This document shows, piece by piece, positions 15,207-63,444 of a stretch of 64,000 nt of DNA. A model generated the notes under the pieces. The model did no database searches. It worked only from the letters and a program-made list of their open reading frames with translations, and was not told where the DNA came from. This stretch comes from an uncultured Candidatus Saccharibacteria bacterium (GTDB lineage Bacteria; Patescibacteriota; Saccharimonadia; Saccharimonadales; SZUA-47), in contig CAYQPN010000003.1 of assembly GCA_964419675.1 (NCBI GenBank), positions 75,985-139,984 of the forward strand, read 5' to 3'. Within the stretch, counting starts at the first letter, position 1. Each line of letters opens with the position of its first letter. Position numbers and translations under genes: made by a program.

Positions 15207-16052
15207 CTATGCAACTAACAGCTTTTGAATGTGTAGTCCGTCAAGACGATCGACATTCTGATGAATATTTGACAGCATAAGAGGTTTATAAATATTCAAC
15301 CGATTATAGTGTGCCACTAGTGGTGCGGTACCAATCACAAATAACGGAATTTTTGACTGGCCCAAAGCTCTATCCACACCCTTAGCAACATTTCTGATAA
15401 AAGTATCTTCAAGCATTTTACTTCGATCTTTATAGCCACCGTGACCATGAAAGGCCTCAGAATTCTTGATGCCTCCAAGTCCAACCATATGAGTTTGCAA
15501 ATCCTCGCCAGGTTCGTCTAGGTGCAAAGACTTTTTCAAATCTTCCGGAATCTTTTTTTCGGCAATACGAGTAACAGATGCATCGTTCCTAACTCTAAAG
15601 AGACGAGTATTTTTTTTACTAAGCGCTAGAATAAAATGATTATGAAGAGTTTCTGGTTCCAAGATGCTCAAAGGTTCAACCACAAAACGAACACCAACAA
15701 AAATTCGCTGTTCAAAGCTATGATTAATTCTAAATTTATAAATTGCTTCATCATTTATGAATATAGCCAGACCTTTTGACTGAGATTCCCAGAAAAGAAG
15801 TTCGTCTATCATTTTTCTTGCTAGCTCAACCCATTTTGTATCTTTTTTTACCTCTAACGGCATAAAGTTGCCTAAGGCCATTTGTTTGGCAGACCTAAGA
15901 GCATTTTTAAAGACAATTCTATTTGATTCTGTACCAGAAAAACCCGGCTTCATAGGCAAATAAATCGATATGCTTGGCGTTGATTCTTGTCTGGCTAATT
16001 TGTTTATTGTATAAGGCGTAATCGTATTAATCATAATCACCACCACACTCAA
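15207..16052 (-). CDS. eRF1-like (baeRF-family-like) protein, hypothetical
   Basis: 281 aa. The N-terminal pattern PSISIYLPMKPG...ESNRIVFKNALRSA and overall layout match my recollection of bacterial eRF1-like baeRF families. No GGQ motif seen. Assignment from memory only. Confidence 0.4.
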   Translation of the reverse strand: MSVVVIMINTITPYTINKLARQESTPSISIYLPMKPGFSGTESNRIVFKNALRSAKQMALGNFMPLEVKKDTKWVELARKMIDELLFWESQSKGLAIFINDEAIYKFRINHSFEQRIFVGVRFVVEPLSILEPETLHNHFILALSKKNTRLFRVRNDASVTRIAEKKIPEDLKKSLHLDEPGEDLQTHMVGLGGIKNSEAFHGHGGYKDRSKMLEDTFIRNVAKGVDRALGQSKIPLFVIGTAPLVAHYNRLNIYKPLMLSNIHQNVDRLDGLHIQKLLVA

Positions 16053-16105: not shown

Positions 16106-16771
16106 CTAAAGATTTGATCCAAGCATCATTTGGAGCCTAGCAAGATCCTTAACCGAAATTGTTCCATGATTCACCGTAACTAAACCTTGTGACTTTAGTT
16201 TATTTAATTTTCGGCTAACTGTTTCCCTAGATAGTCCCGATCTGCTGGCTAGTTCATCTTCTGTTAGCTGTAACGCATATACACCACTTTTGTCCTTAAC
16301 CCCAAATCGTCCACACTCAACAGCCAACTCAAACAATAAACGGCTTTGTGAGGTGCCTCCCATCAGATGCGCCATCCGCCGCTGCAAACCCTCTGTTCCA
16401 GAGTAGACGCGGCTCAGTAAATCGTAGGTAACATCGCTATTTGCTTTTAAAAATTCAATTACTTCATTGGTTGGGGCTTTTCTGGTGCTAGACTCCGCTG
16501 ACACCTCGTAAAAATATTGATTCGGCGTATTGTTAATAGCCCACATCATTGGGAAGAACGCTGATTCCTTAAAGACATTAACAACAACTTCTAGCCCCTT
16601 ATCAGTAATGTCATACTGTCGCACCTGACCTGTTTCTAAATAATAAATACCATCTGGGGTGGTGTCGGCATAAATGAGTATTGAACCCTTATCATGATGG
16701 TACAGGGGGTACTTCGAGAAAAAACCTTCGACTTTTTTCTGAATCGATTTTTTCATAATAGTCCTCTTCAA
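16106..16771 (-). CDS. Crp/Fnr-family transcriptional regulator
   Basis: 221 aa. N-terminal cNMP-binding-like beta-roll and a C-terminal HTH (LASRSGLSRETVSRKLNKLKSQGLV). Confidence 0.85.
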   Translation of the reverse strand: MKRTIMKKSIQKKVEGFFSKYPLYHHDKGSILIYADTTPDGIYYLETGQVRQYDITDKGLEVVVNVFKESAFFPMMWAINNTPNQYFYEVSAESSTRKAPTNEVIEFLKANSDVTYDLLSRVYSGTEGLQRRMAHLMGGTSQSRLLFELAVECGRFGVKDKSGVYALQLTEDELASRSGLSRETVSRKLNKLKSQGLVTVNHGTISVKDLARLQMMLGSNL

Positions 16772-27800: not shown

Positions 27801-27952
27801 ATTCTTTTCAGTCAACCGAGGTTGGTGTTAGAATTTAGGGGTAAAAGGTACGTAATGTCCTATAAATAGGACTTACAAGTTGCTATTCTAGCAAAAAAGT
27901 GTCGTTATGTCAATACTAAAATACTTTTTCGTTGTATAAGCAAAACTATATT

Positions 27953-28804
27953 ATGAATACGCTTACCCTTAGACCACCTCTGAGAAAAAAACTTAACCGA
28001 TTAAAAGTTAAAGTTAGCACTTTAACTTACCTAGGTATTGATATTAATGAACTAATAGATAGACCAATAGTTGCAATTGTGGGAACTCGAAAGCCGACTC
28101 CGTATGGAAAACAAATAACAGAGAAGATTGCCGCTGAGCTGGCAAGGGCAGGGACAATAATAGTTAGCGGGCTAGCCTTCGGAATAGATACAATTGCCCA
28201 CGAGGCTTGCTTGAAGGCTGGCGGGACCACGATTGGAGTTCTACCAAGCGGTATCAACAACATATATCCTGCGTCACACCGAAACATCGCAAAACGAATC
28301 GTAAAAGAGGGTGGGGCGCTTTTAAGTGAGTATGAGGCTGACCGGCAACCCCTAAAAATAGAGTTTCTTGAGAGGAATAGAATAATTGCAGCATTGAGCG
28401 ACGCAGTAATAGTCACAGAGGCCGCAGAACGCTCAGGAAGCTTAAACACCGCTGGACATGCAGAGTCTATGAATATCCCCGTTTTTGCCGTTCCTGGACC
28501 CGTAACTAGCTCGCTGAGCGGAGGCACAAACCATTTGCTAAAAACGGGATGTAGAATGATCACCGAAGCCAGAGATGTGTTGGAGTTTCTAAATGTTAAA
28601 GGTATCAAAAACAAAGTCCCGATAAAAGGTAACACCCCTGAGGAAACGCTAGTAATGATTAAAATATCTGAAGGGATGCATGATTCAGCCTTACTTCAAG
28701 TACAATCTGGTCTGGAAACGAGAAAGTTTCAGATGGCGATAACTATGCTGGAACTTGACGGTAAGATAAAAGCCGACGCAGTGGGAAATTGGCATATTAT
28801 TTAG
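27953..28804 (+). CDS. dprA: DNA-processing protein DprA
   Basis: ORF from TTG 27932; ATG at 27953. Rossmann-like DprA core IVGTRKPTPYG...IVSGLAFGIDTIAHEACL...AVIVTEA..SGSL.TA. Confidence 0.88.
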   Translation: MNTLTLRPPLRKKLNRLKVKVSTLTYLGIDINELIDRPIVAIVGTRKPTPYGKQITEKIAAELARAGTIIVSGLAFGIDTIAHEACLKAGGTTIGVLPSGINNIYPASHRNIAKRIVKEGGALLSEYEADRQPLKIEFLERNRIIAALSDAVIVTEAAERSGSLNTAGHAESMNIPVFAVPGPVTSSLSGGTNHLLKTGCRMITEARDVLEFLNVKGIKNKVPIKGNTPEETLVMIKISEGMHDSALLQVQSGLETRKFQMAITMLELDGKIKADAVGNWHII

Positions 28805-28924
28805 AGTTAGTTTAGATTTATGTTTGCAATGCCGCGTAAGTTTAGGTTATTCTAGGCAACTGTCAGCCCATGACGCACTGTAATGGGGTATACTAAACGC
28901 TAATGACTAATATAAGGACAACCC

Positions 28925-31216
28925 TTGAGTAAAAATCTTGTTATAGTTGAGAGTCCAGCTAAAGCAAAGACTATTGAGAAATTTCTTGGAGCAGATTACA
29001 CAGTAAAGAGTAGCTTCGGGCATATCCGTGATTTACCTAAAAAGGGCATGAGCATTGACAAAGAGAACAACTTTGAACCGACCTATGAAGTGAGCATTGA
29101 CAAGAAAAAGGTCGTGTCAGAACTCAAAAAATTCGCAAAAACGGCCGATACGGTCTGGCTTGCAAGTGATGAAGACCGCGAAGGAGAAGCCATTGCTTGG
29201 CATCTATGTAAAGCACTGGGTTTAAGCGTTGAAGACACCAAACGCATCGTCTTTCATGAAATTACCAAAAGTGCCATCGAGGCCGCCATTAAAGCTCCTA
29301 GAACCGTAGATAAGCACCTGGTAGATGCCCAGCAGGCTAGAAGAGTATTAGACCGCCTGGTTGGTTATGAACTTAGCCCAGTACTGTGGAAGAAGATTCG
29401 GCCTGGTTTAAGCGCCGGTAGAGTTCAGTCTGTTGCGGTCCGAATTATCACTGAGCGCGAACGAGAAATAACAGCATTTAACGCCGAAAAATCTTTAAAG
29501 GTAACTGCCAACTTGGTTGTATCGGGTAAAGACGTCTTGGAAACAGAGTTGTCTAAGAAGTTAAAAGACGCAGTCGAAGCTCGAAAATTATTAGAACATG
29601 TCAAAACCGCAACTCTAAAAGTAGTGAACAGCGAGAAAAAGCCAGGAGTAAAAAGCCCATCGGCACCTTTTACGACCAGTACTTTGCAACAAGAGGCTGC
29701 CATACGCCTAAGCTACGGAGTAAAGCAAACCATGTTACTAGCGCAAAGGTTGTATGAAAATGGGCACATCACCTACATGCGTACCGACAGCCCGGTTCTT
29801 TCGGGGCTAGCAACTAGCATGATAGGCAATTTTATAGAGCAAAAATACGGTAGTAAGTACCATCAGTATCGTCAATTTGCTTCTAAAAATAGCTCCGCTC
29901 AAGAGGCTCACGAAGCTATTCGCCCAACTGATGTTTCTAAGCTGGTCGCAGGCGATGATGAGCAACAGCGTAAAATTTATGATTTGATTTGGAAAAGAGC
30001 CGTTAGCTCTCAAATGGCTCAAGCTAAGGTAGAAAAAACCGAAGTAACGGTATCAATTGAGGGCAGGGAAGAAACTTTGCACGGCAAAGGCGAGGTACTG
30101 ATATTTGACGGTTATTTGAGCATTTACGGCGGTGGAAAAGAAGACAAGATTATCCCGCCTCTATCTGTTGGGGACGAGCTAACTCTACAAAAAATGGTTG
30201 CAAAAGAGACTTTTGGCAGATCTCCTGCTCGGTACAGTGAAGCGAGCTTAGTTCGCAAGCTTGAGGAGATGGGTATAGGACGACCGAGTACTTATGCGCC
30301 AACTATTGGCACAATCCAAGACCGCGGATACATTGAGAAGAAAGATCTTGACGGGGAAGAGCGGGCAGTAGCAGAGCTTACCCTTGAAAATGGCCAGATT
30401 AATGAAGCGGAAATAATTGAAAGGTTTGGTGCTGACCGGCAGAAACTTATTCCAACTCACCTGGCGGAAGTTACCACTGATTTTTTGGTTAAACACTTTT
30501 TACCAATTGTTGACTACGACTTTACCGCTAAAGTAGAAGCAGAGTTTGACGATATAGCAGATGGCAAAAAACAGTGGAATGCTATGATTTCTGATTTTTA
30601 TAAAGATAAATTTCACCCCTTAGTTGAGGCTTCTGATAGTATTTCTAGAAGTGAAAGTTCGCAAGCAAAAAAATTAGGTGTTGACCCAAAAAGCGGTAAA
30701 CCACTAATAGCCAGGTACGGTAAATTTGGCCCGATGCTACAGATTGGTGAAGCCGAAGACGAAGATAAGCCTAAATTTGCACCACTTCCTGAAGGCGCAA
30801 CACTGGACAGTGTTACGTTTGAGCAAGCACTAGAAATGTTTAAGTTGCCAAGAGTTGTTGGCAAGACCACTGATGGCTTAGAAATTACTGCAAACCTAGG
30901 GCGTTTTGGCCCCTACGTTCAAGTTGAGAAAAACTACTTTTCAATTAAAGGCTTTGACCCATTGACTATATCTGAGGAAGATTCGATTAAAATCATCGAT
31001 GAAGTTAGTGAAAAACGTAAGCCTATAAAAGAATTTTCTAACGGTATTATAGTATTAAATGGTCCGTACGGCCCCTACATTAAAAAAGACAAAGTTAATG
31101 CTCGTATACCAAAAGGTGTCGACCCAGAATCTTTAACAGAAGAACAGTGCATAGAGCTTATTGAAAAAGCTCCTAAAAAGAAGCGTCGTTTTACCAAGAG
31201 AAAAACCAAAAAGTAA
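28925..31216 (+). CDS. topA: DNA topoisomerase I (zinc-finger-less, repeat-type C-terminal domain)
   Basis: 763 aa with a TTG start after an AAGGA RBS. Toprim LVIVESPAKAKTIEKFLG, active-site ITYMRTDS. The C-terminus has G(R/K)FGP(Y/M) repeats and a Lys-rich tail rather than Cys4 fingers. Confidence 0.95.
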   Translation: MSKNLVIVESPAKAKTIEKFLGADYTVKSSFGHIRDLPKKGMSIDKENNFEPTYEVSIDKKKVVSELKKFAKTADTVWLASDEDREGEAIAWHLCKALGLSVEDTKRIVFHEITKSAIEAAIKAPRTVDKHLVDAQQARRVLDRLVGYELSPVLWKKIRPGLSAGRVQSVAVRIITEREREITAFNAEKSLKVTANLVVSGKDVLETELSKKLKDAVEARKLLEHVKTATLKVVNSEKKPGVKSPSAPFTTSTLQQEAAIRLSYGVKQTMLLAQRLYENGHITYMRTDSPVLSGLATSMIGNFIEQKYGSKYHQYRQFASKNSSAQEAHEAIRPTDVSKLVAGDDEQQRKIYDLIWKRAVSSQMAQAKVEKTEVTVSIEGREETLHGKGEVLIFDGYLSIYGGGKEDKIIPPLSVGDELTLQKMVAKETFGRSPARYSEASLVRKLEEMGIGRPSTYAPTIGTIQDRGYIEKKDLDGEERAVAELTLENGQINEAEIIERFGADRQKLIPTHLAEVTTDFLVKHFLPIVDYDFTAKVEAEFDDIADGKKQWNAMISDFYKDKFHPLVEASDSISRSESSQAKKLGVDPKSGKPLIARYGKFGPMLQIGEAEDEDKPKFAPLPEGATLDSVTFEQALEMFKLPRVVGKTTDGLEITANLGRFGPYVQVEKNYFSIKGFDPLTISEEDSIKIIDEVSEKRKPIKEFSNGIIVLNGPYGPYIKKDKVNARIPKGVDPESLTEEQCIELIEKAPKKKRRFTKRKTKK

Positions 31217-31359
31217 CCATAAGCAGTTTTCGTATCACATAATTTGGCGTTTTCCACAACTTGTGCTCTGTTAGTAGTTGTTTTGTCGTAATATTCACAT
31301 ACATTTTATGTGTAATTACGGCGAATTGCTGGTAAAATAAATATATAAGAGAATAATTG

Positions 31360-31388
31360 TTGACTTATTAAAAATATTGTTATACAAT
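31360..31388 (+). promoter_or_regulatory. candidate sigma70-type promoter
   Basis: -35 TTGACT (31360-31365), 17-nt spacer, -10 TACAAT (31383-31388), 22 nt upstream of the ATG at 31411. Confidence 0.45.
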
Positions 31389-31410
31389 AGACTAAACGGA
31401 AGCGAGATAT

Positions 31411-32445
31411 ATGGCAGAAACAACTAATCACAAGTTACAGGTGGAAACAGTTATAAACGATATTCTTGGCTCAATTGAGCGTGAGAGAGAACGCGAAATT
31501 ATATCTAGAAGATACGGGCTTTTTGATAGAAAAGAAACACTTGAACAGATTGGCGAACTACTTGGAATTACTCGTGAGCGAGTAAGACAACTTGAAAAAG
31601 CTGTAGTCACAAAATTGCGAACTCAAGCTGATAAAGATTTACCACATATTACAGAGGTAGAGCAGGTGTTAACATCACTTCTATCAGAGATGGGAAATGT
31701 TGCTAGAATAAGTAATTTATCTGAGAAGCTTACTAAAGAGAATAGCAAAATCGACCAATCCAGAATTGCATTTCTAGCTCGACTTTGCCCAAATATCACA
31801 TTCTTAAACGAAAACGATCATTTCCAAAACTCTGCAGCTATTTCTAAAGAATACAAGACAGAGAAGGGGATTAAGGACAAAGTTGGTAATGTTATTGAAG
31901 CAATCAAGAAGATTGCAAAGCCTGTAAACATCAAGGAAATTGCCGGTGCTATGGGCCACCCTAATGCACAGCAAGTTGAAGCGTTGGCTTCAGTATCAAA
32001 AGACCTTGCAACCCTAAACGGTCGCTGGGGACTTATCAAATGGCCGATGGTTAATCCAAAGAATATCAGAGACAAAATATACGTTATTCTTTATGAAAAC
32101 GAAAAACAAATGCACTTTAACGAGATTTCTAAAGCTATAGCAAAATCTGATTTTAAACGTAAGGACGTGACAACTCAGGCTATTCATAACGAACTTATCA
32201 AAGACAAGAGATTCATTTTAGTAGGACGCGGTATTTACGCACTGAAAGAATGGGGCTTCAAGCAGGGAACTGTGGCCGATGTTATTTCAGAGGTGCTTAA
32301 AAGTGCTGGAGAGCCACTTCACAGAGACGAAATTGTTAAAAGAGTGCTAAAAAAGCGCTTTGTTAAAGAAACAACCATTCTTTTGAACTTACAAGGCAAG
32401 CCACAGTTCAAGAGAACCGCCAAAGCCACATATACTTTAGCTTAA
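31411..32445 (+). CDS. sigma-70 region-4-like HTH protein with C-terminal HARE-HTH-like domain
   Basis: 344 aa. N-terminal RRYGLFDRKETLEQIGELLGITRERVRQLEKAVVTKLR (region 4.2-like). C-terminal MHFNEISKAI...IHNELIKDKRFILVGRGIYALKEWG (HARE-HTH-like). Confidence 0.6.
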   Translation: MAETTNHKLQVETVINDILGSIEREREREIISRRYGLFDRKETLEQIGELLGITRERVRQLEKAVVTKLRTQADKDLPHITEVEQVLTSLLSEMGNVARISNLSEKLTKENSKIDQSRIAFLARLCPNITFLNENDHFQNSAAISKEYKTEKGIKDKVGNVIEAIKKIAKPVNIKEIAGAMGHPNAQQVEALASVSKDLATLNGRWGLIKWPMVNPKNIRDKIYVILYENEKQMHFNEISKAIAKSDFKRKDVTTQAIHNELIKDKRFILVGRGIYALKEWGFKQGTVADVISEVLKSAGEPLHRDEIVKRVLKKRFVKETTILLNLQGKPQFKRTAKATYTLA

Positions 32446-32451
32446 GTTATT

Positions 32452-33051
32452 ATGAACCTGTTACGTCATCATGGGCTTGAATTAGCAGTTTTTGAGCCTG
32501 AAGATGTTTTACAGTCAAAAGATGAGTTCAAAGAACAGGCGACCAAGCAAGGAGCAGAGTCGTTTCGACGACTTGTAAGGGTTAGTGGCCCTTTTGATAA
32601 TTTAAGAACACATCTAAGTACTTTCGAAGGTGAATTGAGAACCCTAGCAGAATCATGCAGGGCTAAAATTATACCGTTTAGATGGGGAATTTGCCGCGAA
32701 AGCAGACGTTTTACCAACCAGTGGCAGTATACCCAGCCTAGTCTACCTGCGGGCTATCTTATGGCTGCAGAAGTAACTGTTGTCTTAGAAGGAGCAGAGC
32801 TATCTGGGATAGATTATGAGTTGAAAAAAAGAGAATTTGAACAAGGAGTAGAAATCTATCGGTCAGATGCCGCAAGACGTCCACATAGAATAAAAGATAT
32901 TGACATCAATCAGACAATGTACGGTCACTTAGCCACACATATTGATCAGGAAGATGGTTTGTGGTACGTAGACATAGAGCCTAGAATCGGTCGCAAGACA
33001 GGGCCTACAATAGATACTCCCAGTTTTAAAGGCGCACAAGTTATAGAATGA
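32452..33051 (+). CDS. hypothetical protein (orphan)
   Basis: 199 aa with no TM or recognised motif. It is the last plus-strand gene before the orientation switch. Confidence 0.45.
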   Translation: MNLLRHHGLELAVFEPEDVLQSKDEFKEQATKQGAESFRRLVRVSGPFDNLRTHLSTFEGELRTLAESCRAKIIPFRWGICRESRRFTNQWQYTQPSLPAGYLMAAEVTVVLEGAELSGIDYELKKREFEQGVEIYRSDAARRPHRIKDIDINQTMYGHLATHIDQEDGLWYVDIEPRIGRKTGPTIDTPSFKGAQVIE

Positions 33052-33243
33052 TGAACGTTTTACGAACAACTTAGAATACGCCTAAACTCTAACAAAGATC
33101 AAACAGTGACTTAAAAAAACAATAACCGTGGCTTGAGACGGGGGAATTAAATTCGAAAAACAATTAATTATAAAAACAGCAAAAGCTTACAAAAAAATTA
33201 ATGTGTAAATCGCAGTAGAGGACATAGTCCGAACACAGGCATG

Positions 33244-33271
33244 ACGTCGCACAATGTATATTTTGCGACTC
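33244..33271. other. dif-like Xer recombination site candidate
   Basis: ACGTCGCACAA-TGTATA-TTTTGCGACTC. The central hexamer is identical to E. coli dif (GGTGCGCATAA-TGTATA-TTATGTTAAAT). The left arm resembles GCGCATAA, and the arms form an inverted repeat (GTCGCAcAA / TTtTGCGAC). It sits in the convergent gap where gene orientation flips. Confidence 0.45.
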
Positions 33272-33666
33272 GCTATATAGTTTACTGACTTGATTCTGTA
33301 TACCCCCTAAACAGGGGAGTTTTCATTAGTTATCCTAATTAAGCCAGTATTACTCTACGCACGACTCATTACACGGCTCTAATTAACCTAATTCCAGCAT
33401 CCTATGCTTGGGTTGGATGTAGTGCGATATACATTACATATAGTTATCCACACTTACGCTGTGAAATGCACGCTTTTTCACGATTTCTAGCGTTTAACTT
33501 CTTAAAGCCCCCCGTTGTCCCCCGATAGAGGATGCATGTATTTGCTTTTTTGTTAATCCCCTAGCATAATATGTTTTTTTTATTTTATAGAACATTTTGC
33601 GAACACTACTAAAAGCAGAGGAGGGTACTACGAGAGACCCTAATCTAATTACTAATTAGCTTCTGA

Positions 33667-34569
33667 CTACTGAACAAAGACACGTCCAGGAACTCTGACA
33701 TCAATATACTTCTGTGGCAACTGGCCTTCCCTACTTAGTTGAACTAGGGTTGCTTTCATGGCACCCACCTGCTCTTTTGCATCTGAGTAAGTACTTAATT
33801 TAATGTAGTAGCCCACATCCTTTAAGCGCACCTCAAATTGGCCATCTGCTACATTGAAGAGTATTTCCTGAGGTTTAAGCTGTAGGGTATTAACCTCTGT
33901 TGATAGAGAGTTTAGCTCATAAACTAGTAGATTAATAAGCGAAACTTCGTCTAAAGTAAGCACCGATGAGCCTAGCTGGAAGTTTTGTTGCTGACTTGCA
34001 AAACGAAGACCTAAAATTTCAGTATCTGACTCGGGAATAGTCTGTGACACGTAGACTCCTTTATCATCTATAATGCCAATCTCCGAGCCATTTTGTACCT
34101 TTAGTAGGGGTAATGACGTTGTAATAGAGACCACCAAGTCCCTACCACCAAGCGGTATTATTGCATCTATACTTGATATTTCAGGAAAATGATTCTTCAT
34201 CTCTTGTTCAAAATTTCCGGCCCGAAAAAATACTTTACTACGATTAACTATTGAACTATTGAATAACTCACTAGCCACTGATTGATACTCCGATATACCA
34301 TGGTATGCTACGCTAGATTTTCTTAACTTTATCTGCGGTGACGTCGACATCGTAGTTGCAAAAAACAACAACGCAAAAACCACTAGTAGTATTATGTAAT
34401 TTAGAAAGCTCGAGATAGAAAACCTACCCTTTGCAGACTCTTTGAACTCCTGGTCTCTTTTTTTAGTACTAACTGGTTGATTTACCGGTCTATAATAACG
34501 AGTGACCGGAGCACTACTAGTGTGACTATTAGATAATTTTGGCTGTCTTTTATGCTTTTTTAAACGCAC
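33667..34569 (-). CDS. ftsQ: cell-division protein FtsQ/DivIB-like
   Basis: 300 aa. Basic N-terminus, single TM, POTRA-like segment (FPEISSIDAIIPLGGRDLVVSITTSLPLL). Position directly after murG in the dcw cluster. Confidence 0.55.
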   Translation of the reverse strand: MRLKKHKRQPKLSNSHTSSAPVTRYYRPVNQPVSTKKRDQEFKESAKGRFSISSFLNYIILLVVFALLFFATTMSTSPQIKLRKSSVAYHGISEYQSVASELFNSSIVNRSKVFFRAGNFEQEMKNHFPEISSIDAIIPLGGRDLVVSITTSLPLLKVQNGSEIGIIDDKGVYVSQTIPESDTEILGLRFASQQQNFQLGSSVLTLDEVSLINLLVYELNSLSTEVNTLQLKPQEILFNVADGQFEVRLKDVGYYIKLSTYSDAKEQVGAMKATLVQLSREGQLPQKYIDVRVPGRVFVQ

Positions 34570-34575
34570 AATAGT

Positions 34576-35742
34576 TTACTTCCTGGCAATTTCCATTAAT
34601 ATCCGTGCAATTCTTATCCCGGCGTCACTTACAAATAAATCATGAAGGGCCCAGCCTAACTTTATTCGCATTGATTCATCACTCAGAAGTAAATTTGAGG
34701 CCCTTAGTAGTGACTGTTGATCGTTCTCGTCTACTATCACTGCGGCATCCTTATCTTTTAATATGTTTGCATTTTTAGTTTGCTGACCTCCTGTAAGTAA
34801 AGGGTTTGGAACGACAATACACGCCTTTGCTTGCGTAGAAAACTCTGCAATGTTTGTAGCACCACCCCTACAAATAATCAGTTCAGCTGCTGCGCTGTAG
34901 TTGAACATCTCATTTGTAAATCCAATAAGTTTTATGTGAGACATTTCGTCATCCGATATTTTTTGCTTGTAGCTAGCTTCTGTTTGTTCGTATAATTTCT
35001 TGCCGCAAACATGAACTATTAATAGGTTACTTTTGATTTTTATTAGATCTCTAGCTATCTCGATTACCATATTATTTAGATTAGATGCTCCGTTGCCACC
35101 ACCGGTAACAAGAATTACGCAGGTATCCTTGCTAATCCCAAGCTTTGATTTTGCGAGATTCTGAGCTTTTAAATCTACAACTGAAAATTCGTCTCTAATT
35201 GGTATTCCTACTTGAATAGTTTTCATTTTATCGTACGGGTACAAACCTATCGGCATGGCCGTAGTATTCTTGCTAGCGTGTTTTGCAGTTATGCGGTTGG
35301 CTAGGCCGGGTATCGCGTCAGAATCGTGCGTTATATATGGGATTTTTCTATATCTTGCTGCTATCCCAATTGGAACCGATACAAAGCCACCCTTTAGAAA
35401 TATCACGGACGGCTTCAGTCTGCCTAGAAGAAACCAGGCTTGAATTGTGCCTAAGGTAAAATAAAACAGGTCCCGGACATTCAGCAGTTGTGTTTTAACA
35501 TCAAGAACGTGACTGATAAACCCTGCCCCATGATAGCGCCGAAATTTTCCGGCAAAAATCTGATAAGTTTCATTAATAGAGTCGTGATCCATTACTTCTC
35601 TCAGAGTCTCTCCACGTTGTCCAACATAGCCAACATTAATTGAGCTATCTAACTTTTTAAGTGCTTTTGATACTGCAAGTAGAGGTGTTAGATGGCCACC
35701 TGAGCCCCCGCCTACTAATAATACTTTTACTACGTTACTCAT
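34576..35742 (-). CDS. murG: UDP-GlcNAc:lipid I N-acetylglucosaminyltransferase MurG
   Basis: 388 aa. N-terminal GGGSGGHLTPLLAV and C-terminal ICRGGATNIAE. Its start overlaps the ftsW stop by 4 nt. Confidence 0.9.
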   Translation of the reverse strand: MSNVVKVLLVGGGSGGHLTPLLAVSKALKKLDSSINVGYVGQRGETLREVMDHDSINETYQIFAGKFRRYHGAGFISHVLDVKTQLLNVRDLFYFTLGTIQAWFLLGRLKPSVIFLKGGFVSVPIGIAARYRKIPYITHDSDAIPGLANRITAKHASKNTTAMPIGLYPYDKMKTIQVGIPIRDEFSVVDLKAQNLAKSKLGISKDTCVILVTGGGNGASNLNNMVIEIARDLIKIKSNLLIVHVCGKKLYEQTEASYKQKISDDEMSHIKLIGFTNEMFNYSAAAELIICRGGATNIAEFSTQAKACIVVPNPLLTGGQQTKNANILKDKDAAVIVDENDQQSLLRASNLLLSDESMRIKLGWALHDLFVSDAGIRIARILMEIARK

Positions 35743-36956
35743 CCCCTACCCCAGCGTACTGGTCTTAGGTGCGTGGACTCAGTAGCACGTGATTTTCCGT
35801 ATATTCGTTTAACAACTCGTCTTTGTGATAAATCGGTATACCTTGAAACCTGAAAAACTATCCCAACTGCTGCCATAACAAAAATTATACTGGTTCCTCC
35901 GTAGCTAACAAAAGGTAGAGTTATGCCTTTTAGTGGGAGTAGCCCAATCATGGCCCCCACATTTATCATCATCTGAACGCTCAACCATACCAGAATTCCA
36001 CTTACCAGCAATCTTGTGTAGTCGTTAGGGGAAGTCTCTGCGATGGACTTTATTCTTCTAAATAACAGAAAAAATACCGCAATTATAAGTGCTGAACCAA
36101 CGAAACCAAACTTCTCCGAGACTATTGCAAAAATAGAATCATTTGCTGCTTCTGGAAGGTAGCCATACGCCTGTACGCTTCGCCCAAGCCCTTTTCCGAA
36201 TATACCGCCTGAACCAACCGTTATAAGCGCTTGACAGGCTTGATAGCCCTCATTTTGACAATCTGCCGTGGGATTCAAGAATGTCGTAACCCTATCTCTT
36301 CTATATTGACTAGACATCACCGCCATTACAGTCACAGCAAGTACCACAAAACTGACTACTACCAACTTTTTCATAGGCAGACCCGCAACATATGCCATGA
36401 AGCCTACTATTGCCATCATGACAGCAGCAGAGCCTAAATCACTTTGGAGCCCTGCGACTACTAAAACTATTACCCCTACGGTAATTCCTATCATTTTTAG
36501 CGTATCTCTATGCGCAATGGATTGTTCTCGCTTCTGTTTTACGAGATAGCCCGCTAACCAGATGATTAGAGTGAATTTTATGAGTTCAGCTGCCTGAAAA
36601 GAAAACCCCCCAATCTGTAACCATCGATATGCACCATTTATTTCTTCCCCATAAAATCTAACTGAAACCGCCACTGCGGAAGATAAAACTATAAATGGTA
36701 TTGCTAGCTTCTTCCATATTGAAACTTTTATGACAGATGCTACTACAAACGCAATAATTCCAAGAGCAATTGCAGTCAGTTGTTTAACGGTATAAAAATT
36801 TTCTGGTAATCCTTTAATACTTGTTATGCCAGGCCCGATAGCAAAAACAGTTACTGCACCGAAGCCTAGAAGGATTGTCATTAGCAGAACAAGAATGTAG
36901 TCTGGACGGTGCTTCCTAACATCTTGGCCTGCGGAAACTGCCGATTGTCTTGGCAT
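35739..36956 (-). CDS. ftsW: SEDS-family peptidoglycan glycosyltransferase FtsW/RodA
   Basis: Ten-TM SEDS pattern (...LQSDLGSA...LPEAANDSIFA...GLLPLKGITLPFVSYGGTS). The track ORF begins at a TTG (37064) that overlaps mraY by 67 nt, so ATG at 36956 (Met37) is preferred. Confidence 0.85.
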   Translation of the reverse strand: MPRQSAVSAGQDVRKHRPDYILVLLMTILLGFGAVTVFAIGPGITSIKGLPENFYTVKQLTAIALGIIAFVVASVIKVSIWKKLAIPFIVLSSAVAVSVRFYGEEINGAYRWLQIGGFSFQAAELIKFTLIIWLAGYLVKQKREQSIAHRDTLKMIGITVGVIVLVVAGLQSDLGSAAVMMAIVGFMAYVAGLPMKKLVVVSFVVLAVTVMAVMSSQYRRDRVTTFLNPTADCQNEGYQACQALITVGSGGIFGKGLGRSVQAYGYLPEAANDSIFAIVSEKFGFVGSALIIAVFFLLFRRIKSIAETSPNDYTRLLVSGILVWLSVQMMINVGAMIGLLPLKGITLPFVSYGGTSIIFVMAAVGIVFQVSRYTDLSQRRVVKRIYGKSRATESTHLRPVRWGRG

Positions 36957-36997
36957 GACTCGCCTGCCCCGAGAAGCAGCCCCGAGTCGGCTTGAAT

Positions 36998-38038
36998 TCA
37001 CGCCACAAACTCCCTCAAGTAAATTATCAAACCAACTATGGATGAAATTATTCCTATAATCCAAAATCGCATTGTCACTTTTGTCTCCGGCCAGCCACTT
37101 GCTTCAAAATGGTGATGAATCGGAGCAATCTTAAACACTTTTTTGCCATTACGAAGTTTTTTGGAACTAATTTGTATTAAGCTTGATCCAGCTTCTACTA
37201 CAAAAACAAAACCTATTATTGGTAGTAACACTAGCGTGTCAGTTAACATTGCTACCACTCCGAGGGCTGTTCCTAAAGCAAAAGAACCGGAATCACCCAT
37301 GAAAAACCTTGCGGGATAAAGATTAAACCATGTATAGCTCAACAATGCCCCCACTAACGTTATACAGAATGCGGCAATGCCAGCCTCATTCTGCATTAAA
37401 GCTATAATAGCGTATGCACTAAAAGCGATAACTGCTAGTCCACCAGCCAAACCGTCTAAACCGTCACTGATATTTACTGCGTTTGCTGTTGATACAACTA
37501 CTAAAATAAACAGAGGTATAATTAACCATCCAAGTGTAAGATGTCCGATAAACGGTACAGTTATTGATGTAACGTCGAGTTTTGCAAAGAACCACCAACC
37601 GCCGACCAAAGATACAAGAAAAATTAAAATAGATTTAGACCTAGCGCGCATTCCCGCTATGCCTCCAGAAACACTTTTAATGTTCAAAAAGTCATCAACT
37701 AACCCTACTAGTCCTGCCCCAACCATCGCGGCAAGAGGAAGCCATGTTTGGGCACGGTCAAGGTTGCCCAATAATGTTATTAAGGCTGTCGTTAGAACAA
37801 AGATAATCCCTGCCATTGTTGGTATATTTGACCTATGCTTGGCTGCATGAAGTTTTTGATACACCGTTGCAGCTTCGCCTGTCACTGCGACAGTTCGGGC
37901 TTGTTTCCACCATTTATACTTGTAGGCAAGCGTTGTATATATAGGGGTAAGTAGCATTGATAACACGAAACCAAAGACTCCAAACATAAGTACTGATAAA
38001 ATTGATTCGTTCGTTAGGATTATGTTGATTTCTGTCAT
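36998..38038 (-). CDS. mraY: phospho-N-acetylmuramoyl-pentapeptide transferase MraY
   Basis: 346 aa. NAVNISDGLDGLA, GDSGSFALG and PIHHHFE motifs. Confidence 0.93.
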   Translation of the reverse strand: MTEINIILTNESILSVLMFGVFGFVLSMLLTPIYTTLAYKYKWWKQARTVAVTGEAATVYQKLHAAKHRSNIPTMAGIIFVLTTALITLLGNLDRAQTWLPLAAMVGAGLVGLVDDFLNIKSVSGGIAGMRARSKSILIFLVSLVGGWWFFAKLDVTSITVPFIGHLTLGWLIIPLFILVVVSTANAVNISDGLDGLAGGLAVIAFSAYAIIALMQNEAGIAAFCITLVGALLSYTWFNLYPARFFMGDSGSFALGTALGVVAMLTDTLVLLPIIGFVFVVEAGSSLIQISSKKLRNGKKVFKIAPIHHHFEASGWPETKVTMRFWIIGIISSIVGLIIYLREFVA

Positions 38039-38068
38039 ATTTATTTCCGTTTCTTGACTCTTATTATA

Positions 38069-39832
38069 TCACTGATTGGTCTTTGCCTTAACCGAGAAGT
38101 TGTCTATTAACATATTCGATAGAGAGGCAAAAATAGGTCCAGCAGCCCGAGACCCGGCGTAACCGCCAATTTTAGGTTCATTAACCCTGACAAAAATTAC
38201 ATATTCTGGCTTGTCACCTCCGACAAACCCCATATACGTACCATTAAATCTGTCATCATAATACCCTCCGGCAGGATTTGCAATTTCTGCAGTACCAGTT
38301 TTACCCCCAACGCTATAACCAGCCCGAATAGCCGGTCTATTTACGTTATTCACTACGTTATTCATGAAGCCTATGACGGTGTTAGACACTTCCGGCGAAA
38401 TAACGTTTTGTTTTACGATTTCTGGTTTCTTTTCTGTTTCTACACCACTCGAATCAATAGTCGAAGCAACCAGATGAGGCTTATAGTAAGTCCCGCCGTT
38501 AACGATAGACGCTAGTGCAGTTATCATCTGCAGTGGAGTAGCGGTCATACCCTGCCCGAAACTGGTGTTTACGTATTTAATGTTAAGCCCAAACCCCTCA
38601 GTAGGGCTAGGAACAATACCTTCAGATTCATATCCCTGTTCAATTCCCGTTATCTTACCCAATTGAAAATGATTGGTCATGTAATCGTTCCAGAGTAGTC
38701 TTCCCTTTTCATTAAATTCTCCATTGCCCATTTGTAGTAATAGCCAAGATGCACCAGTGTTTAGTGAGTATCTTAAAATATCGGAGACTGTTCGCTGTGC
38801 AGCTCCTCCGTCTTCTTCAATGTTTTTTACGGTGTAACCATCTACTTTATAAAAACTAGGGTCATAGTACGACTGGTCAGGTGTTACAGAACCGCTGTCT
38901 AGGGCCGCTGAGGTAGTTAAGACCTTCATAATTGAGCCTGGCTCTAACGGAGAGCTAACAGAAGCATTAGTAAACAGCGAAGCATCTTCTACTTCCCCGA
39001 ACTTGGCCGGATCGTAACTTGGATAGTTTGAAATAGCCTTTATCGCTCCAGTGTATGGATCCATTATTATTGCACTACCTGAATTACTGATTGCGTTTTT
39101 TAAACCTTCGGCTAATATTTTTTCAAGCTGTTGTTGCATTGCAACGTCAATTGTCAGCACTACGTCGCTACCATCTACCGGATCTTCTTGAATATTTTCA
39201 CCGCTAGCAAGCAGAGGTATACCATTCTGGTCTGTTAGAGCTCTTATTTTTCCCGCCTTACCGGCCAAATCGGTATTTAGATATTGTTCAATACCATAGT
39301 TGCCTTCTCCTTCATCATTAACAAAGCCTAATGTTTGAGCGGCCAATGGGCCCTGAGGGTACACCCGTTGAATGACTTTCTCGGTAAATATACCTTTTAG
39401 TTTTTTTGAAGTTATTTCTGATTCTATTGCTTGTTTTACTTCTTTAGTTTGCTTCTTTGCCAATATCTCATAACGTGAATTCTTAACTTGAAGAGCCTGC
39501 TCAATGGTTGTTCTCTCTACCTTTAATATATCTGCCAGAAGTAGAGCTTCTGATTCAACATCGGACACAAATTCTGGGTCAGCAACGATGTTATAGCGTA
39601 TTTCGTTTAATACTAGCGGGACTTTTTGCCCACCGTCTTCCGCAAATATAGTCCCTCTGGTAGCCGGAATTTCATAACGTTTAAGCTGGTTACCCTCTGC
39701 TTGAGCTTGATAATAGTCATAACGAATAACCTGTAAATAAAAAAGTCGCCCTATGAATATTATAAATACAACAATTAACAACGCATAGAGTGAGCGTATC
39801 CGTCTGTTTGAATTAACCTGAATGTCTTCCAT
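38069..39832 (-). CDS. ftsI: class B penicillin-binding protein (FtsI/PBP2-type transpeptidase)
   Basis: 587 aa. N-terminal TM, SxxK (GSIMK), SxN (YSLN) and KTGT (GGKTGTAE). Confidence 0.88.
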   Translation of the reverse strand: MEDIQVNSNRRIRSLYALLIVVFIIFIGRLFYLQVIRYDYYQAQAEGNQLKRYEIPATRGTIFAEDGGQKVPLVLNEIRYNIVADPEFVSDVESEALLLADILKVERTTIEQALQVKNSRYEILAKKQTKEVKQAIESEITSKKLKGIFTEKVIQRVYPQGPLAAQTLGFVNDEGEGNYGIEQYLNTDLAGKAGKIRALTDQNGIPLLASGENIQEDPVDGSDVVLTIDVAMQQQLEKILAEGLKNAISNSGSAIIMDPYTGAIKAISNYPSYDPAKFGEVEDASLFTNASVSSPLEPGSIMKVLTTSAALDSGSVTPDQSYYDPSFYKVDGYTVKNIEEDGGAAQRTVSDILRYSLNTGASWLLLQMGNGEFNEKGRLLWNDYMTNHFQLGKITGIEQGYESEGIVPSPTEGFGLNIKYVNTSFGQGMTATPLQMITALASIVNGGTYYKPHLVASTIDSSGVETEKKPEIVKQNVISPEVSNTVIGFMNNVVNNVNRPAIRAGYSVGGKTGTAEIANPAGGYYDDRFNGTYMGFVGGDKPEYVIFVRVNEPKIGGYAGSRAAGPIFASLSNMLIDNFSVKAKTNQ

Positions 39833-39887
39833 ACTATTATTATACTTGTTGAGGTACTAGTCTTTTTTCTAGACTGTACTAAACAAC

Positions 39888-40235
39888 TTAGTTTTGAATA
39901 GTTCCCGATGGAGCAACTGATACTAGGCCTGCTGCAGCCTGAGCAACTTTTTCGGAATCAAGTGAACGCAAGCGAGCTGCGGTTAGCTCTAGGTCCTTTT
40001 GGTCTTCTTTAAGCTGTGATTGCTTACTTTCTAAGCTATTAATCTTATAGCTAAAAGAGTTAGTCTTTGTGACCTGCGTCAAATAAACTAAACCTATTAA
40101 ACAAACCATGACGAGAATCGTTATGGCGTTGGTTATAGGTCCTAACCTTTTTGTTTCTTGTTTGTAGCTTACAGCGTTTTGACCACGCGTTGAAAAGCGT
40201 TGTCTGCTGATGCTGGATGCTGATGAATATGTCAT
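39888..40235 (-). CDS. ftsL: FtsL-like bitopic cell-division protein
   Basis: 115 aa. One TM plus a coiled-coil segment (SLESKQSQLKEDQKDLELTAARLRSL). Position between rsmH and the PBP gene. Confidence 0.55.
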   Translation of the reverse strand: MTYSSASSISRQRFSTRGQNAVSYKQETKRLGPITNAITILVMVCLIGLVYLTQVTKTNSFSYKINSLESKQSQLKEDQKDLELTAARLRSLDSEKVAQAAAGLVSVAPSGTIQN

Positions 40236-40408
40236 ACTTTTGTTTTTGTTTCTTTACTCAGTCACCTTAGGAGAGAAAAAACGGGCGCGTTATTTCTTCT
40301 CCTTTGAGGTGACCAAGATTTTTTTGTTTGCCCACACTCTTTTTAGTGTGTATATAGGGTGCTAGTCAAAGCGTCTTCTCTTGAATTTCAAGATCAAACA
40401 ACTCTAAC

Positions 40409-40457
40409 TTTTACCTTATAGGAGCGTGAGCTTGATTTTACCTGTATAGGCATGAGC
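40409..40457. repeat. tandem ~24-nt direct repeat abutting the rsmH stop codon
   Basis: TTTTACCTTATAGGAGCGTGAGCT (40409-40432) versus TTTTACCTGTATAGGCATGAGCT (40436-40457). Confidence 0.6.
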
Positions 40458-40458
40458 T

Positions 40459-41355
40459 CTACCCGCCCTTTCTTTTTGTTGTTTTTATTTTCACTGCGAC
40501 TCGTAGCTTCGCACTACGGGCACGCGGATTAAGGACTAATTCATCTGACGCAGCCGTGATGGGTTTCTTTGTTAAAACTCTCAGGTCAGCATCATATCTA
40601 TTCCCGCCATATTCGTTGAAAAATTGTTTTACTAACAAATCCTCAAGACTATGGAACGAAATAACTGCAAGGCGTCCGCCTGGTGCTAGAAGTTTGAGCC
40701 AAATAGGCAATGATTGGCGCAATTGCTCTAACTCGTCATTCACAGCTATTCTAATAGCCTGAAATGTTCTTGTGGCAGGATGTACCCGACTATATCCGGG
40801 CCAAGCCTTGCTAACTATGTTTGCAAGTTCGTGTGTCGATTTAAACGGCCGGTGTTCCACTATAAGCGAGGCTATATGCCTGGCTTTAGGTTCCTGCGCA
40901 TATTCTTTTAAAATACGCGTAAGCTCCTTTTCAGAATACGTATTTACCAAAACTCCAGCACTAAGGGCTTGGTTCTGGTCCATACGCATATCTAGTGGTC
41001 CATCGCTGTTTATAGAAAACCCACGACTCGCTATGTCAAGGTGCGGTGACGACACGCCTAAATCTGCAATAATAATGTCAAATCGTTCTTCTTTATTCAC
41101 TAGCTCTTGGCTAGCTGATAAGAAATCTAACTGACGTATTGAAATATCTGATTTTCCCACAAAACGCTTTTTTAGTGCTTCAACCGCATTATTATCGCGG
41201 TCTACTAACACTGCTGTTGCATTTGTAGCCTTCAGTATTTCGTTTGCGTGTCCACCGTACCCTGCCGTTAAGTCTAAATATGATTCACCCTTTTTGGGGC
41301 TTATCGTCTCTAGTACTTCGCGCAAGAGTACAGGTATGTGATTTTGTTTTGGCAT
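40459..41355 (-). CDS. rsmH: 16S rRNA (cytosine1402-N4)-methyltransferase RsmH
   Basis: 298 aa. HIPVLLREVLE, DLTAGYGGHA, DLGVSSPHLD and SFHSLEDL motifs. Confidence 0.93.
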   Translation of the reverse strand: MPKQNHIPVLLREVLETISPKKGESYLDLTAGYGGHANEILKATNATAVLVDRDNNAVEALKKRFVGKSDISIRQLDFLSASQELVNKEERFDIIIADLGVSSPHLDIASRGFSINSDGPLDMRMDQNQALSAGVLVNTYSEKELTRILKEYAQEPKARHIASLIVEHRPFKSTHELANIVSKAWPGYSRVHPATRTFQAIRIAVNDELEQLRQSLPIWLKLLAPGGRLAVISFHSLEDLLVKQFFNEYGGNRYDADLRVLTKKPITAASDELVLNPRARSAKLRVAVKIKTTKRKGG

Positions 41356-41410
41356 GACTTTTTCTTGTTTATTTTTAGAGGACTATGAGATGGGACAAGC
41401 CCCCTCTCAT

Positions 41411-41463
41411 CGCGCGGTGTGCGGAACAAATCCGACACTCCGGCTGCTCTCCCCAGAAACATC
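41411..41463. repeat. GC-rich motif copy A in the mraZ-rsmH spacer
   Basis: CGCGCGG-[hairpin CGGTGTGCGGA/TCCGACACTCCG]-CCGGCTGCTCTCCCC-AGAAACATC. Confidence 0.55.
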
Positions 41464-41779
41464 TTTCTATTTGTTTTTATTTTTGCAAGGTCACCTAATC
41501 AGCAGCCAACTTTTTGTTTTGAAAAGTTTTTGTTTTTGTTTATCTAAAACGATGCGAATTTCGGAAGTTATGTGTAAGAGATTTAAAAAATCCCTAAATA
41601 ATCTTCTTTCTCATCTGGTTTTAGAAGTTGAGAGACTTATGTGTGAGGTGGAGTTTTGGGAGGTGTTTTTTATGGAATGTACGAAGGTTTTTAATGTGGT
41701 TACCTTAAATCCACATGTTGGTTGCCGATTAGCTAACCTCGAGGCGTGGTATCAAGACACCCCTTCGGGGTTTCTTGGG

Positions 41780-41831
41780 CGCGCGGGGAACGAAATAAAT
41801 TCGTTCATCCGGCTGCTCTTCCCGATGCATC
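41780..41831. repeat. GC-rich motif copy B in the mraZ-rsmH spacer
   Basis: CGCGCGG-[hairpin GAACGAA/TTCGTTC]-CCGGCTGCTCTTCCC-GATGCATC. The flanks match copy A; the hairpin has a different sequence at the same position. Confidence 0.55.
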
Positions 41832-41906
41832 GCTACATCAGAAAAAACTCTTTGGTTTTCTAATCTTTTTTCTTGCTAAATTTTTAATGTACTTAAACTA
41901 TGGATA

Positions 41907-42266
41907 CTACTTAGCGATTATCCGCCAGTAACGTCCTACACTAACGACAGAAATGTCTCGGTCTATTCCGGCATAAGAGAGGAGATGCTGTTCAAGCGTT
42001 ATCCTTCCCTGCTTACCATCTAGTTGAGCCTGGATCTTGCCTGTTCTAAATTGAACGTTCAGATCTGCTACGCGCTCATCTAAGATGTCGCCGTCTAGTT
42101 TTGGTTCCACTAGCTCTTCCCATACCTTTTTAGGATATAGGTGTAAGTAGTGTCCAAACCCGCGGGTGATGACCACTCCATCTGCAAGGCTATCCCGTAG
42201 TTCTGTTGGGATAGTTAGCCGACGTTTCTCGTCTAGCTTGCGTTCGAAGTAATCTACCTTACCCAT
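41907..42266 (-). CDS. mraZ: transcriptional regulator MraZ
   Basis: 119 aa with two SpoVT/AbrB-like half-domains (LDEKRRLTIPTELR and LDGKQGRITLEQHLLSYAGIDRDISVVSVGRYWRI). First gene of the dcw cluster. Confidence 0.85.
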   Translation of the reverse strand: MGKVDYFERKLDEKRRLTIPTELRDSLADGVVITRGFGHYLHLYPKKVWEELVEPKLDGDILDERVADLNVQFRTGKIQAQLDGKQGRITLEQHLLSYAGIDRDISVVSVGRYWRIIAK

Positions 42267-63313: not shown

Positions 63314-63444
63314 AATTTATATTTTGCTTATTTACAGATATAAATATAGCATAAAATCTGTAAAAAGTCAATCTAAATGCTTAAAATGACCGGACTTTTT
63401 GCTCATGTCCTCATTCGTTATGCGAAATACGATCTACGACCGTG

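Follow-up and report, generated by a model that had tools for sequence, protein, structure and literature searches.

Introduction

Chromosomal dif sites have been defined as two arms with partial dyad symmetry around a 6-bp centre (PMC5357621). In the XerCD/dif system of Escherichia coli and the CodV-RipX/dif system of Bacillus subtilis, the site is a single chromosomal sequence of 28 bp with dyad arms and a 6-bp centre; in XerH/difH of Helicobacter and Campylobacter, XerS/difSL of streptococci and lactococci, and XerA/dif of archaea, one recombinase acts at similar, non-identical arms with a conserved asymmetry, and the site is lineage-wide. The plasmid sites cer and psi join a Xer core to about 180 bp of accessory sequence (with ArgR/PepA or ArcA), and the Tus-Ter and RTP-Ter systems use short protein-binding sites of the terminus region. 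Here we analyse a 28-mer dif-like palindrome at positions 33244-33271 of a 64-kb stretch (contig CAYQPN010000003.1; hereafter, the window) of Saccharibacteria chromosomal DNA (class Saccharimonadia, Candidate Phyla Radiation (CPR)/Patescibacteria; GC about 40%). Judging from its sequence and that of its relatives, it is almost certainly a conserved single-copy protein-binding DNA site, and a dif, the chromosome dimer resolution site of Saccharimonadia, would be its most likely identity, a candidacy that we hold at about even confidence.

The dif predictions of PMC3025954 span 16 phyla, with TM7 not covered. No paper in the literature searched ties Saccharibacteria to dif, Xer, the terminus or a chromosome-resolution system, and none contains the palindrome sequence; the only relevant source that emerged is the gene table published for Southlakia epibionticum ML1, a cultivated member of the group (PMC10633639, supplement). 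All ML1 data below are from this table, with the junction corresponding to our locus placed by synteny.

Much of the XerCD/dif and CodV-RipX/dif arrangement recurs here, including an FtsK gamma domain in the relative ML1 and a large-scale switch of gene orientation. The differences are that ML1 has one Xer-like recombinase; that both arms are of the XerC type, the XerD arm being absent; that the site is not shown to coincide with a shift of neutral skew or with the point opposite dnaA; and that it is part of a conserved module of about 600 bp with extra motifs. In its sequence features, the palindrome is closest to the single-recombinase systems (XerH/difH, XerS/difSL, and archaeal XerA/dif), with one recombinase in ML1, similar arms, a conserved asymmetry, and a lineage-wide site. 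However, xerS adjoins difSL (PMC5357621), whereas here no recombinase is found within 4-10 kb in 132 loci; the difSL centre is 11 bp long, and here it is 6 bp; and archaeal XerA is FtsK-independent, while Saccharibacteria, as seen in ML1, keep FtsK with its gamma domain. The cer and psi sites are similar in having a core site and conserved accessory motifs within a few hundred bp; yet they are plasmid-borne, with accessory sequence on one side and known proteins, whereas the present site is chromosomal, with motifs (GTTC-N7-GTTC twice, and a DnaA-box-like one) on both sides. Sites of the Ter kind would explain uneven replichores, but they occur in several copies and opposed orientations and are not 9-6-9 palindromes of the recombinase type; no homologue of Tus or RTP came to light, though no search was aimed at one.

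Sequence and conservation of the palindrome

The palindrome reads ACGTCGCACAA-TGTATA-TTTTGCGACTC, letter for letter as in the original prediction, which was made from the sequence of the window, and has an 11-6-11 layout. Its arms, described there as inverted copies of each other, are complementary at 8/11 positions; the claimed identity of the central hexamer to that of E. coli dif holds against the site as printed in PMC3025954; and the likeness of the left arm to the XerC arm is borne out by the inner arm bases CGCAnAA / TTnTGCG, which resemble the XerC side. Over positions 5-24 of E. coli dif, 16/20 nucleotides are identical. Two arms with partial dyad symmetry thus surround a 6-bp centre, as in the definition of PMC5357621, and the 28-mer has 5/6 palindromic pairs, where PMC3025954 requires more than four. 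The near-invariant part of the site is a 24-bp core, GTCGCACAATGTATATTTTGCGAC (33246-33269), with a 9-6-9 layout, GTCGCACAA TGTATA TTTTGCGAC; the central hexamer (33255-33260) is asymmetric and is the putative strand-exchange region. A second dif-like 28-mer, TGAACTCATAATTTATATTTTGCTTATT at 63305-63332, overlaps a gene start, has five palindromic pairs, and with 19/28 identities to the dif seeds of PMC3025954 outscores the palindrome at 33244-33271.

A scan with one genome per species, in which the exact core was required, gave more than 120 genomes among the matches listed, three of them represented by complete chromosomes. There is one match per contig, and each match is from a separate assembly; the genomes are labelled Saccharibacteria or Saccharimonadales almost throughout. 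The uniqueness of the 28-mer, raised as a question by the original prediction, thus holds in the window (a single exact occurrence) and contig by contig in the listed genomes. Site-bearing contigs also occur in two metagenome-assembled genomes labelled Bdellovibrionales (L016, CAZRQA010000006.1, and L087, CAZDHE010000016.1) and in one labelled 'Parcubacteria' (L126); the contigs in question have probably been mis-binned or given the wrong label.

Since the scan demanded the exact core, the test was repeated on loci chosen without reference to the site, namely metagenome loci fetched by MurG homology and kept if enough downstream DNA was present (n=59; hereafter, MurG-anchored loci). The site is found in 59/59 of them with at most three mismatches, always on the same strand, and at 1.2-1.6 kb past MurG in 58/59 (2.6 kb in the remaining one). 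Among the 57 non-redundant loci, 20/24 core positions never vary. The variable ones are the mirror pair 5/20 in the arms, and positions 10 and 14 in the centre, where the variants, read on the opposite strand, are TATACA>GATACA>GATATA. Positions 5 and 20 toggle independently: all four combinations are found, including the non-pairing C/A, hence there is no base-pair coupling. The arm asymmetry, A at position 7 and G at the mirror position 18, is fixed in 57/57. No second, degenerate copy (up to five mismatches) is seen in 1.07 Mb of flanking DNA.

The core is near-invariant though the MurG proteins are only 30-57% identical and the flanks cannot be aligned. Relatives with MurG 45-57% identical have the same convergent junction of genes with a gap of about 590-680 bp, and in alignments of these gaps most of the sequence is unalignable, with the palindrome nearly invariant. 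Selection on the core DNA sequence is very strong. The pattern of changes, with mirror-symmetric tolerance in the arms, a conserved asymmetric centre, and a fixed arm difference, is what a tyrosine-recombinase core site should show if it has a direction and its protomers are identical or alike. The architecture, the single copy, and the lineage-wide conservation of a dif are all seen.

These data leave virtually no room for a functionless chance inverted repeat. Inverted repeats as such are ordinary here, with 127 windows of the 11-6-11 layout scoring at least 8/11 in 64 kb, and so is the degree of identity to dif; a chance repeat would, however, not account for 24 bp remaining near-invariant at this level of MurG and flank divergence.

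Recombination machinery

In ML1, the sole PF00589 (Phage_integrase) protein is SEML1_0117, a 307-aa protein whose N-terminal domain is SAM-like and whose fold is best matched by XerC; in transposon sequencing (Tn-seq) it proved dispensable, but at a cost to growth (PMC10633639). FtsK of ML1 is SEML1_0096 and carries the gamma domain PF09397 (PMC10633639). No serine recombinase is listed in the ML1 gene table (PMC10633639). In the 64-kb window there are no tyrosine recombinase genes, in agreement with the original prediction, which had found no Xer gene there, and no FtsK.

One Xer-like enzyme and near-identical arms in the lineage therefore fit a dif system with a single recombinase, and on these sequence features the idea of the original prediction that one recombinase may serve both arms appears consistent with the ML1 gene content. 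On this account, each arm of 9-11 bp would bind one monomer of the single Xer-like tyrosine recombinase of the lineage, the one-base arm difference and the asymmetric 6-bp centre would give the site its direction, and FtsK with its gamma domain would activate strand exchange across the centre at division, by which a dimer of sister chromosomes would be turned into monomers.

The reading as dif also has to be set against several observations that speak against it. Identity to the dif seeds of PMC3025954 is 17/28, a value matched by about 48 other 28-mers of the window, so that function cannot be argued from resemblance to dif; likeness to canonical dif was accordingly rejected as a statistical argument, not being significant in an AT-rich window. 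The outer XerD-type arm TTATGTTAAAT has no match in the palindrome. A recombinase gene near the site (within 4-10 kb) was found in none of 132 loci with an approximate E. coli XerD probe. Finally, a footprint of the kind left by integrative mobile elements exploiting Xer (IMEX) was looked for and rejected, no duplicated site being seen in the 1.07 Mb of flanking DNA.

Gene arrangement around the site

The site lies about 450 bp past the end of the division and cell wall (dcw) operon, at a convergent junction. The gap (33052-33666) is a conserved non-coding module of 615 bp flanked by convergent operons. Left of it, 28/36 main open reading frames (ORFs) are on the + strand, and from 33667 to 60383 every main ORF is on the - strand; it is also the only convergent gap longer than 150 bp in the window. 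The original prediction of a plus-strand block meeting a minus-strand block at an unusually long gap is thereby upheld, as are the length of the gap and its lack of ORFs (the longest has 33 aa); the AT-richness also claimed is only mild, with GC 0.369 in the gap vs 0.403 in the window. The 33-aa ORF starts within the repeat M2 (see below) and is not conserved in contig L005, and a small conserved ORF in the gap was rejected on this ground.

From the right, the dcw operon (33667-42266, - strand) points at the gap; from translations and from Pfam matches of identical or related genes, it encodes MraZ, RsmH, an FtsL-like protein, a penicillin-binding protein, MraY, FtsW, MurG, and an FtsQ-like protein, the gene of the last (33667-34569, - strand) being at the gap-proximal end. 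No ftsA or ftsZ follows the FtsQ-like gene in the cluster, and the ancestral dcw cluster appears to be broken exactly at the gap junction. In ML1, ftsA and ftsZ are at 171-173.5 kb, about 90 kb from the dcw end. From the left, the opposing block (27932-33051, + strand) encodes DprA, TopA, a protein with Sigma70_r4 and HARE-HTH domains, and a 199-aa protein that ends at 33051 and has no Pfam match. The gap thus separates the dcw end, with MurG and the FtsQ-like gene, from the block of TopA, sigma-like, and DprA genes. The Sigma70_r4/HARE-HTH gene next to the gap (31411-32445) is kept class-wide; its ML1 counterpart, SEML1_0294, is annotated 'RpoS' and is essential in Tn-seq.

The site is linked to the MurG/FtsQ-like end in 92/97 loci, and the TopA-side flank is kept in 78/89. 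Genes around the site are convergent in almost every locus, and in exceptional loci with one flank lost they still converge on it. In ML1, about 18 kb of genes (264-282 kb; gene table of PMC10633639) lie between the junction and the sigma-like gene, comprising ten small hypothetical ORFs, a type II CRISPR-Cas9 system, and a type IV secretion system coupling protein. Plasticity of this sort is also met with close to dif sites and termini.

Four contigs of the same species (L001-L004; 99.8-100% identity, three samples, 3-5x coverage) all end at 33220-33357, on either side of the palindrome, without divergence. An assembly-break hotspot at the site was considered and rejected, as the MurG-anchored loci show no general excess of contig ends; for this reason, the breaks are probably due to low coverage.

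Accessory motifs of the module

Between the two flanking stop codons, taken from the FtsQ-like side toward the 199-aa gene (falling window coordinates), the module consists of a putative dcw terminator, repeat M2, a stretch rich in A, GTGAAAAAGC, TTATCCACA, a variable segment of about 120 bp, a GC-rich hairpin plus T-run (TopA-side strand), the palindrome, an AT-rich segment of about 170 bp, and repeat M1. The repeats have the form GTTC-N7-GTTC, with an 11-bp periodicity, and bracket the gap: M1 (33053-33068, - strand; GAACGTTTTACGAACA on the + strand) directly follows the stop of the 199-aa gene, and M2 (33590-33605, - strand, in the same orientation as M1) is about 60 bp from the FtsQ-like stop. 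No other GTTC-N7-GTTC occurs in the 64 kb. M1 is kept in 26-40/54 and M2 in 51-55/57 of the MurG-anchored loci. A perfect DnaA-box consensus, TTATCCACA (33444-33452, + strand), is the only exact match in the window and is about 190 bp from the palindrome; the motif TGTGGAWAA (TTWTCCACA) is present in 54/57 MurG-anchored loci at a constant relative position and orientation. There is no cluster of DnaA boxes around 33444-33452, only the single box. An inverted repeat GTGAAA-N9-TTTCAC (33462-33482) has a partly conserved half, 'GTGAAAAAGC'.

The GC-rich hairpin CCCCTAAACAGGGG, followed by AGTTTTCA (33304-33325, + strand), is about 27 nt from the site. Under strict criteria, hairpins at this fixed distance of about 27 nt, with differing stem sequences, are found in 52/158 loci vs 2/158 on the other side of the palindrome. 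The hairpin is probably the intrinsic terminator of the TopA-side operon, in which case the palindrome would be transcribed, within the 3' untranslated region (UTR). The palindrome might then act as RNA, either as a hairpin within an extended 3' UTR of the TopA/sigma-like operon or as part of an unannotated small RNA that ends at the terminator. The conserved position of the terminator-like hairpin, about 27-35 nt beyond the palindrome, and the conserved 250-nt spacing from the stop codon are in line with this; however, the stem shows no covariation (positions 5/20 vary independently, including C/A), the 12-nt 'loop' varies no more than the stem does, and the fixed orientation and the arm asymmetry fit a DNA site equally well or better. 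With its pairs uncoupled and its 'loop' unchanging, the pattern is unlike that of an RNA stem, and a role as RNA seems highly improbable. Rfam gives no gathering-level match in the gap, only chance-level ones at E<=10.

A different function on DNA deserves more weight, since the tight linkage to dcw and the accessory motifs could point to it, and in this they count against dif. The palindrome and the module would be a platform for one or several other DNA-binding proteins connected with the division operon or with management of the terminus, e.g., a polar barrier to replication forks or a site that organises or anchors the chromosome, with the repeats and the DnaA-like box as working parts and no recombination. 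The site indeed stays with the dcw end rather than with the TopA side (92/97 vs 78/89, and the ML1 insertion); TGTGGAWAA and M2 are conserved to the extent given above and unique to the gap within the 64 kb; both repeats are co-oriented, as a polar element predicts; and uneven replichores, as in ML1 (see below), would need the early-arriving fork to be held. On the other hand, known fork traps consist of several sites in opposed orientations, a cognate protein is nowhere indicated, a 6-bp centre that is asymmetric and conserved between near-identical arms is characteristic of the core sites of tyrosine recombinases and needless for a simple dimer operator, and the only tyrosine recombinase of the lineage would be left without an obvious target. 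Overall, we consider such a platform unlikely and prefer dif.

Position relative to the replication terminus

ML1, the one dnaA-anchored relative analysed, has a genome of about 864 kb in which dnaA is at coordinate 1 and the opposite end carries yidC and rnpA (- strand). The dcw operon of ML1, on the + strand, stops at 263,648, with a 557-bp gap behind it. Between 67 and 137 kb, 78% of the genes are on the + strand, and between 207 and 269.6 kb, 91% are; the fraction is then 51% at 273-348 kb, 34% at 348-421 kb, 9% at 421-484 kb, and 22% at 632-703 kb. Because the fraction drops after 269.6 kb, a genome-wide orientation switch begins at the junction. At 273-348 kb, about 12 essential genes are on the - strand vs three on the + strand; the segment at 421-484 kb holds the S10-spc-alpha, EF-Tu, and rpoBC operons; and the - strand bias extends from about 348 kb round to the origin. 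As the + strand bias of ML1 ends there, the junction is the origin-distal edge of one replichore, and the site probably marks a replichore edge as defined by gene orientation.

Several results weigh against the stronger claim of a replication terminus at the site. In ML1, the junction falls at 0.31 of the genome rather than at 0.5, i.e., about 110 degrees from dnaA, where the original prediction had looked for about 180, and the orientation switch is a plateau at 270-348 kb, not a point. In the window, fourfold-site skew (+ strand) takes the values -0.10, -0.07, and -0.18 immediately left of the gap and -0.06, -0.05, and +0.09 right of it, which is too weak to decide. Across about 190 loci (with other gene families on the TopA side taken at all distances to about 30 kb), genes that point toward the site have a fourfold-site skew between +0.02 and +0.06 if they belong to the dcw side and, on the TopA side, from -0.26 (other families, n=174) to -0.45 (SigL/TopA/DprA); for genes pointing away it is -0.09 (n=15) on the dcw side and -0.02 (n=25) on the TopA side. 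Neutral-site skew does not change sign at the site in these loci. The most economical reading of the figures takes the dcw-coding strand as G-rich (leading) to the left and to the right of the site alike, so that forks from the dcw side pass the site and meet the other fork beyond it, and this too is at odds with a terminus here.

Bulk GC skew in the window does turn from + to - at about 33 kb; it mainly follows the coding strand, and as the skew at third positions and fourfold sites does not turn with it, the flip was rejected as evidence of a terminus. In three complete records, the site is at 0.487, about 0.47, and 0.758; in complete and near-complete records, the fractions cluster at about 0.47-0.57, and since all are counted from record starts that need not be at dnaA, they carry little weight. 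By gene orientation, the ML1 replichores are strongly uneven, about 0.31-0.40 vs 0.60-0.69; uneven replichores are not rare, being found in about 15% of complete genomes (PMC7111523).

In nearly all genomes, the fourfold sites of TopA-side genes aimed at the site are strongly biased toward C (SigL -0.52, TopA -0.42, other families -0.26), with dcw genes at about 0 to +0.15. This C-bias could come from head-on (lagging-strand) placement or from codon bias; family- or expression-specific codon bias may contribute, because the TopA-side genes that point toward the site are outliers under every model and AT skew shows no parallel shift. No site-symmetric model, terminus or origin, fits the skew figures.

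An origin, whether oriC or a second one, would find some footing in the perfect TTATCCACA box with its 54/57 conservation and AT-rich flanks, and in the neutral skew on the TopA side, which fits forks leaving the site. The dcw-side skew, however, fits arriving forks; there is one DnaA box and no cluster; the genes converge and do not diverge; and in ML1 the signature of the origin (rnpA-yidC, then dnaA-dnaN, with diverging bias) is at coordinate 0, about 264 kb off. The features of an oriC are therefore not those of this gap, and we give an origin here only a very slight chance.

The original prediction of a probable terminus, for which gene-strand bias and GC skew were to be decisive, thus survives in part. 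The orientation switch at or just after the ML1 junction, where the strand bias ends, agrees with it; the position at 0.31 of the genome and the unflipped fourfold-site skew do not. That the site is the exact terminus seems rather doubtful; it lies at the edge of an orientation-defined terminus-side region and is not demonstrably the point where forks meet.

Other features of the window

The block at 46-60 kb is not a ribosomal-protein superoperon, a possibility ruled out by Pfam, which identifies a GlyRS-type aminoacyl-tRNA synthetase, exonuclease VII, a flippase-like protein, Ldh_2, NYN, and leucine-rich repeat proteins, and others. Two arguments that depended on such a superoperon, namely that the skew asymmetry reflects codon bias linked to expression and that a ribosomal operon is aimed at the junction, fall with it. 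A protein of the baeRF (bacterial archaeo-eukaryotic release-factor-like) family is encoded at 15207-16052, beside a Crp-type regulator (16106-16771).

Implications

The palindrome is, in the literature searched, the first dif candidate for Saccharibacteria, which with the rest of the CPR account for much of bacterial diversity and have hardly been studied. Being class-wide and single-copy, the 24-bp site is, in any case, a landmark for orienting and checking metagenome-assembled genomes. One recombinase and a near-symmetric site make a clear prediction that is testable in two genetically tractable strains, and the accessory motifs, together with the conflict between gene orientation and neutral skew, pose puzzles about how tiny genomes finish replication.

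A wider possibility, which we regard as quite unlikely, is that the whole module, with its palindrome, two co-oriented repeats and single DnaA box, is a hitherto unknown 'terminus organiser' physically tied to the division operon across Saccharimonadia, combining dif with a polar fork barrier or a DnaA-dependent checkpoint. If true, it would fix one replichore end, which would explain both the 0.31:0.69 replichores of ML1 and the missing flip of neutral skew, and it would tie chromosome resolution to the expression of divisome genes 450 bp away.

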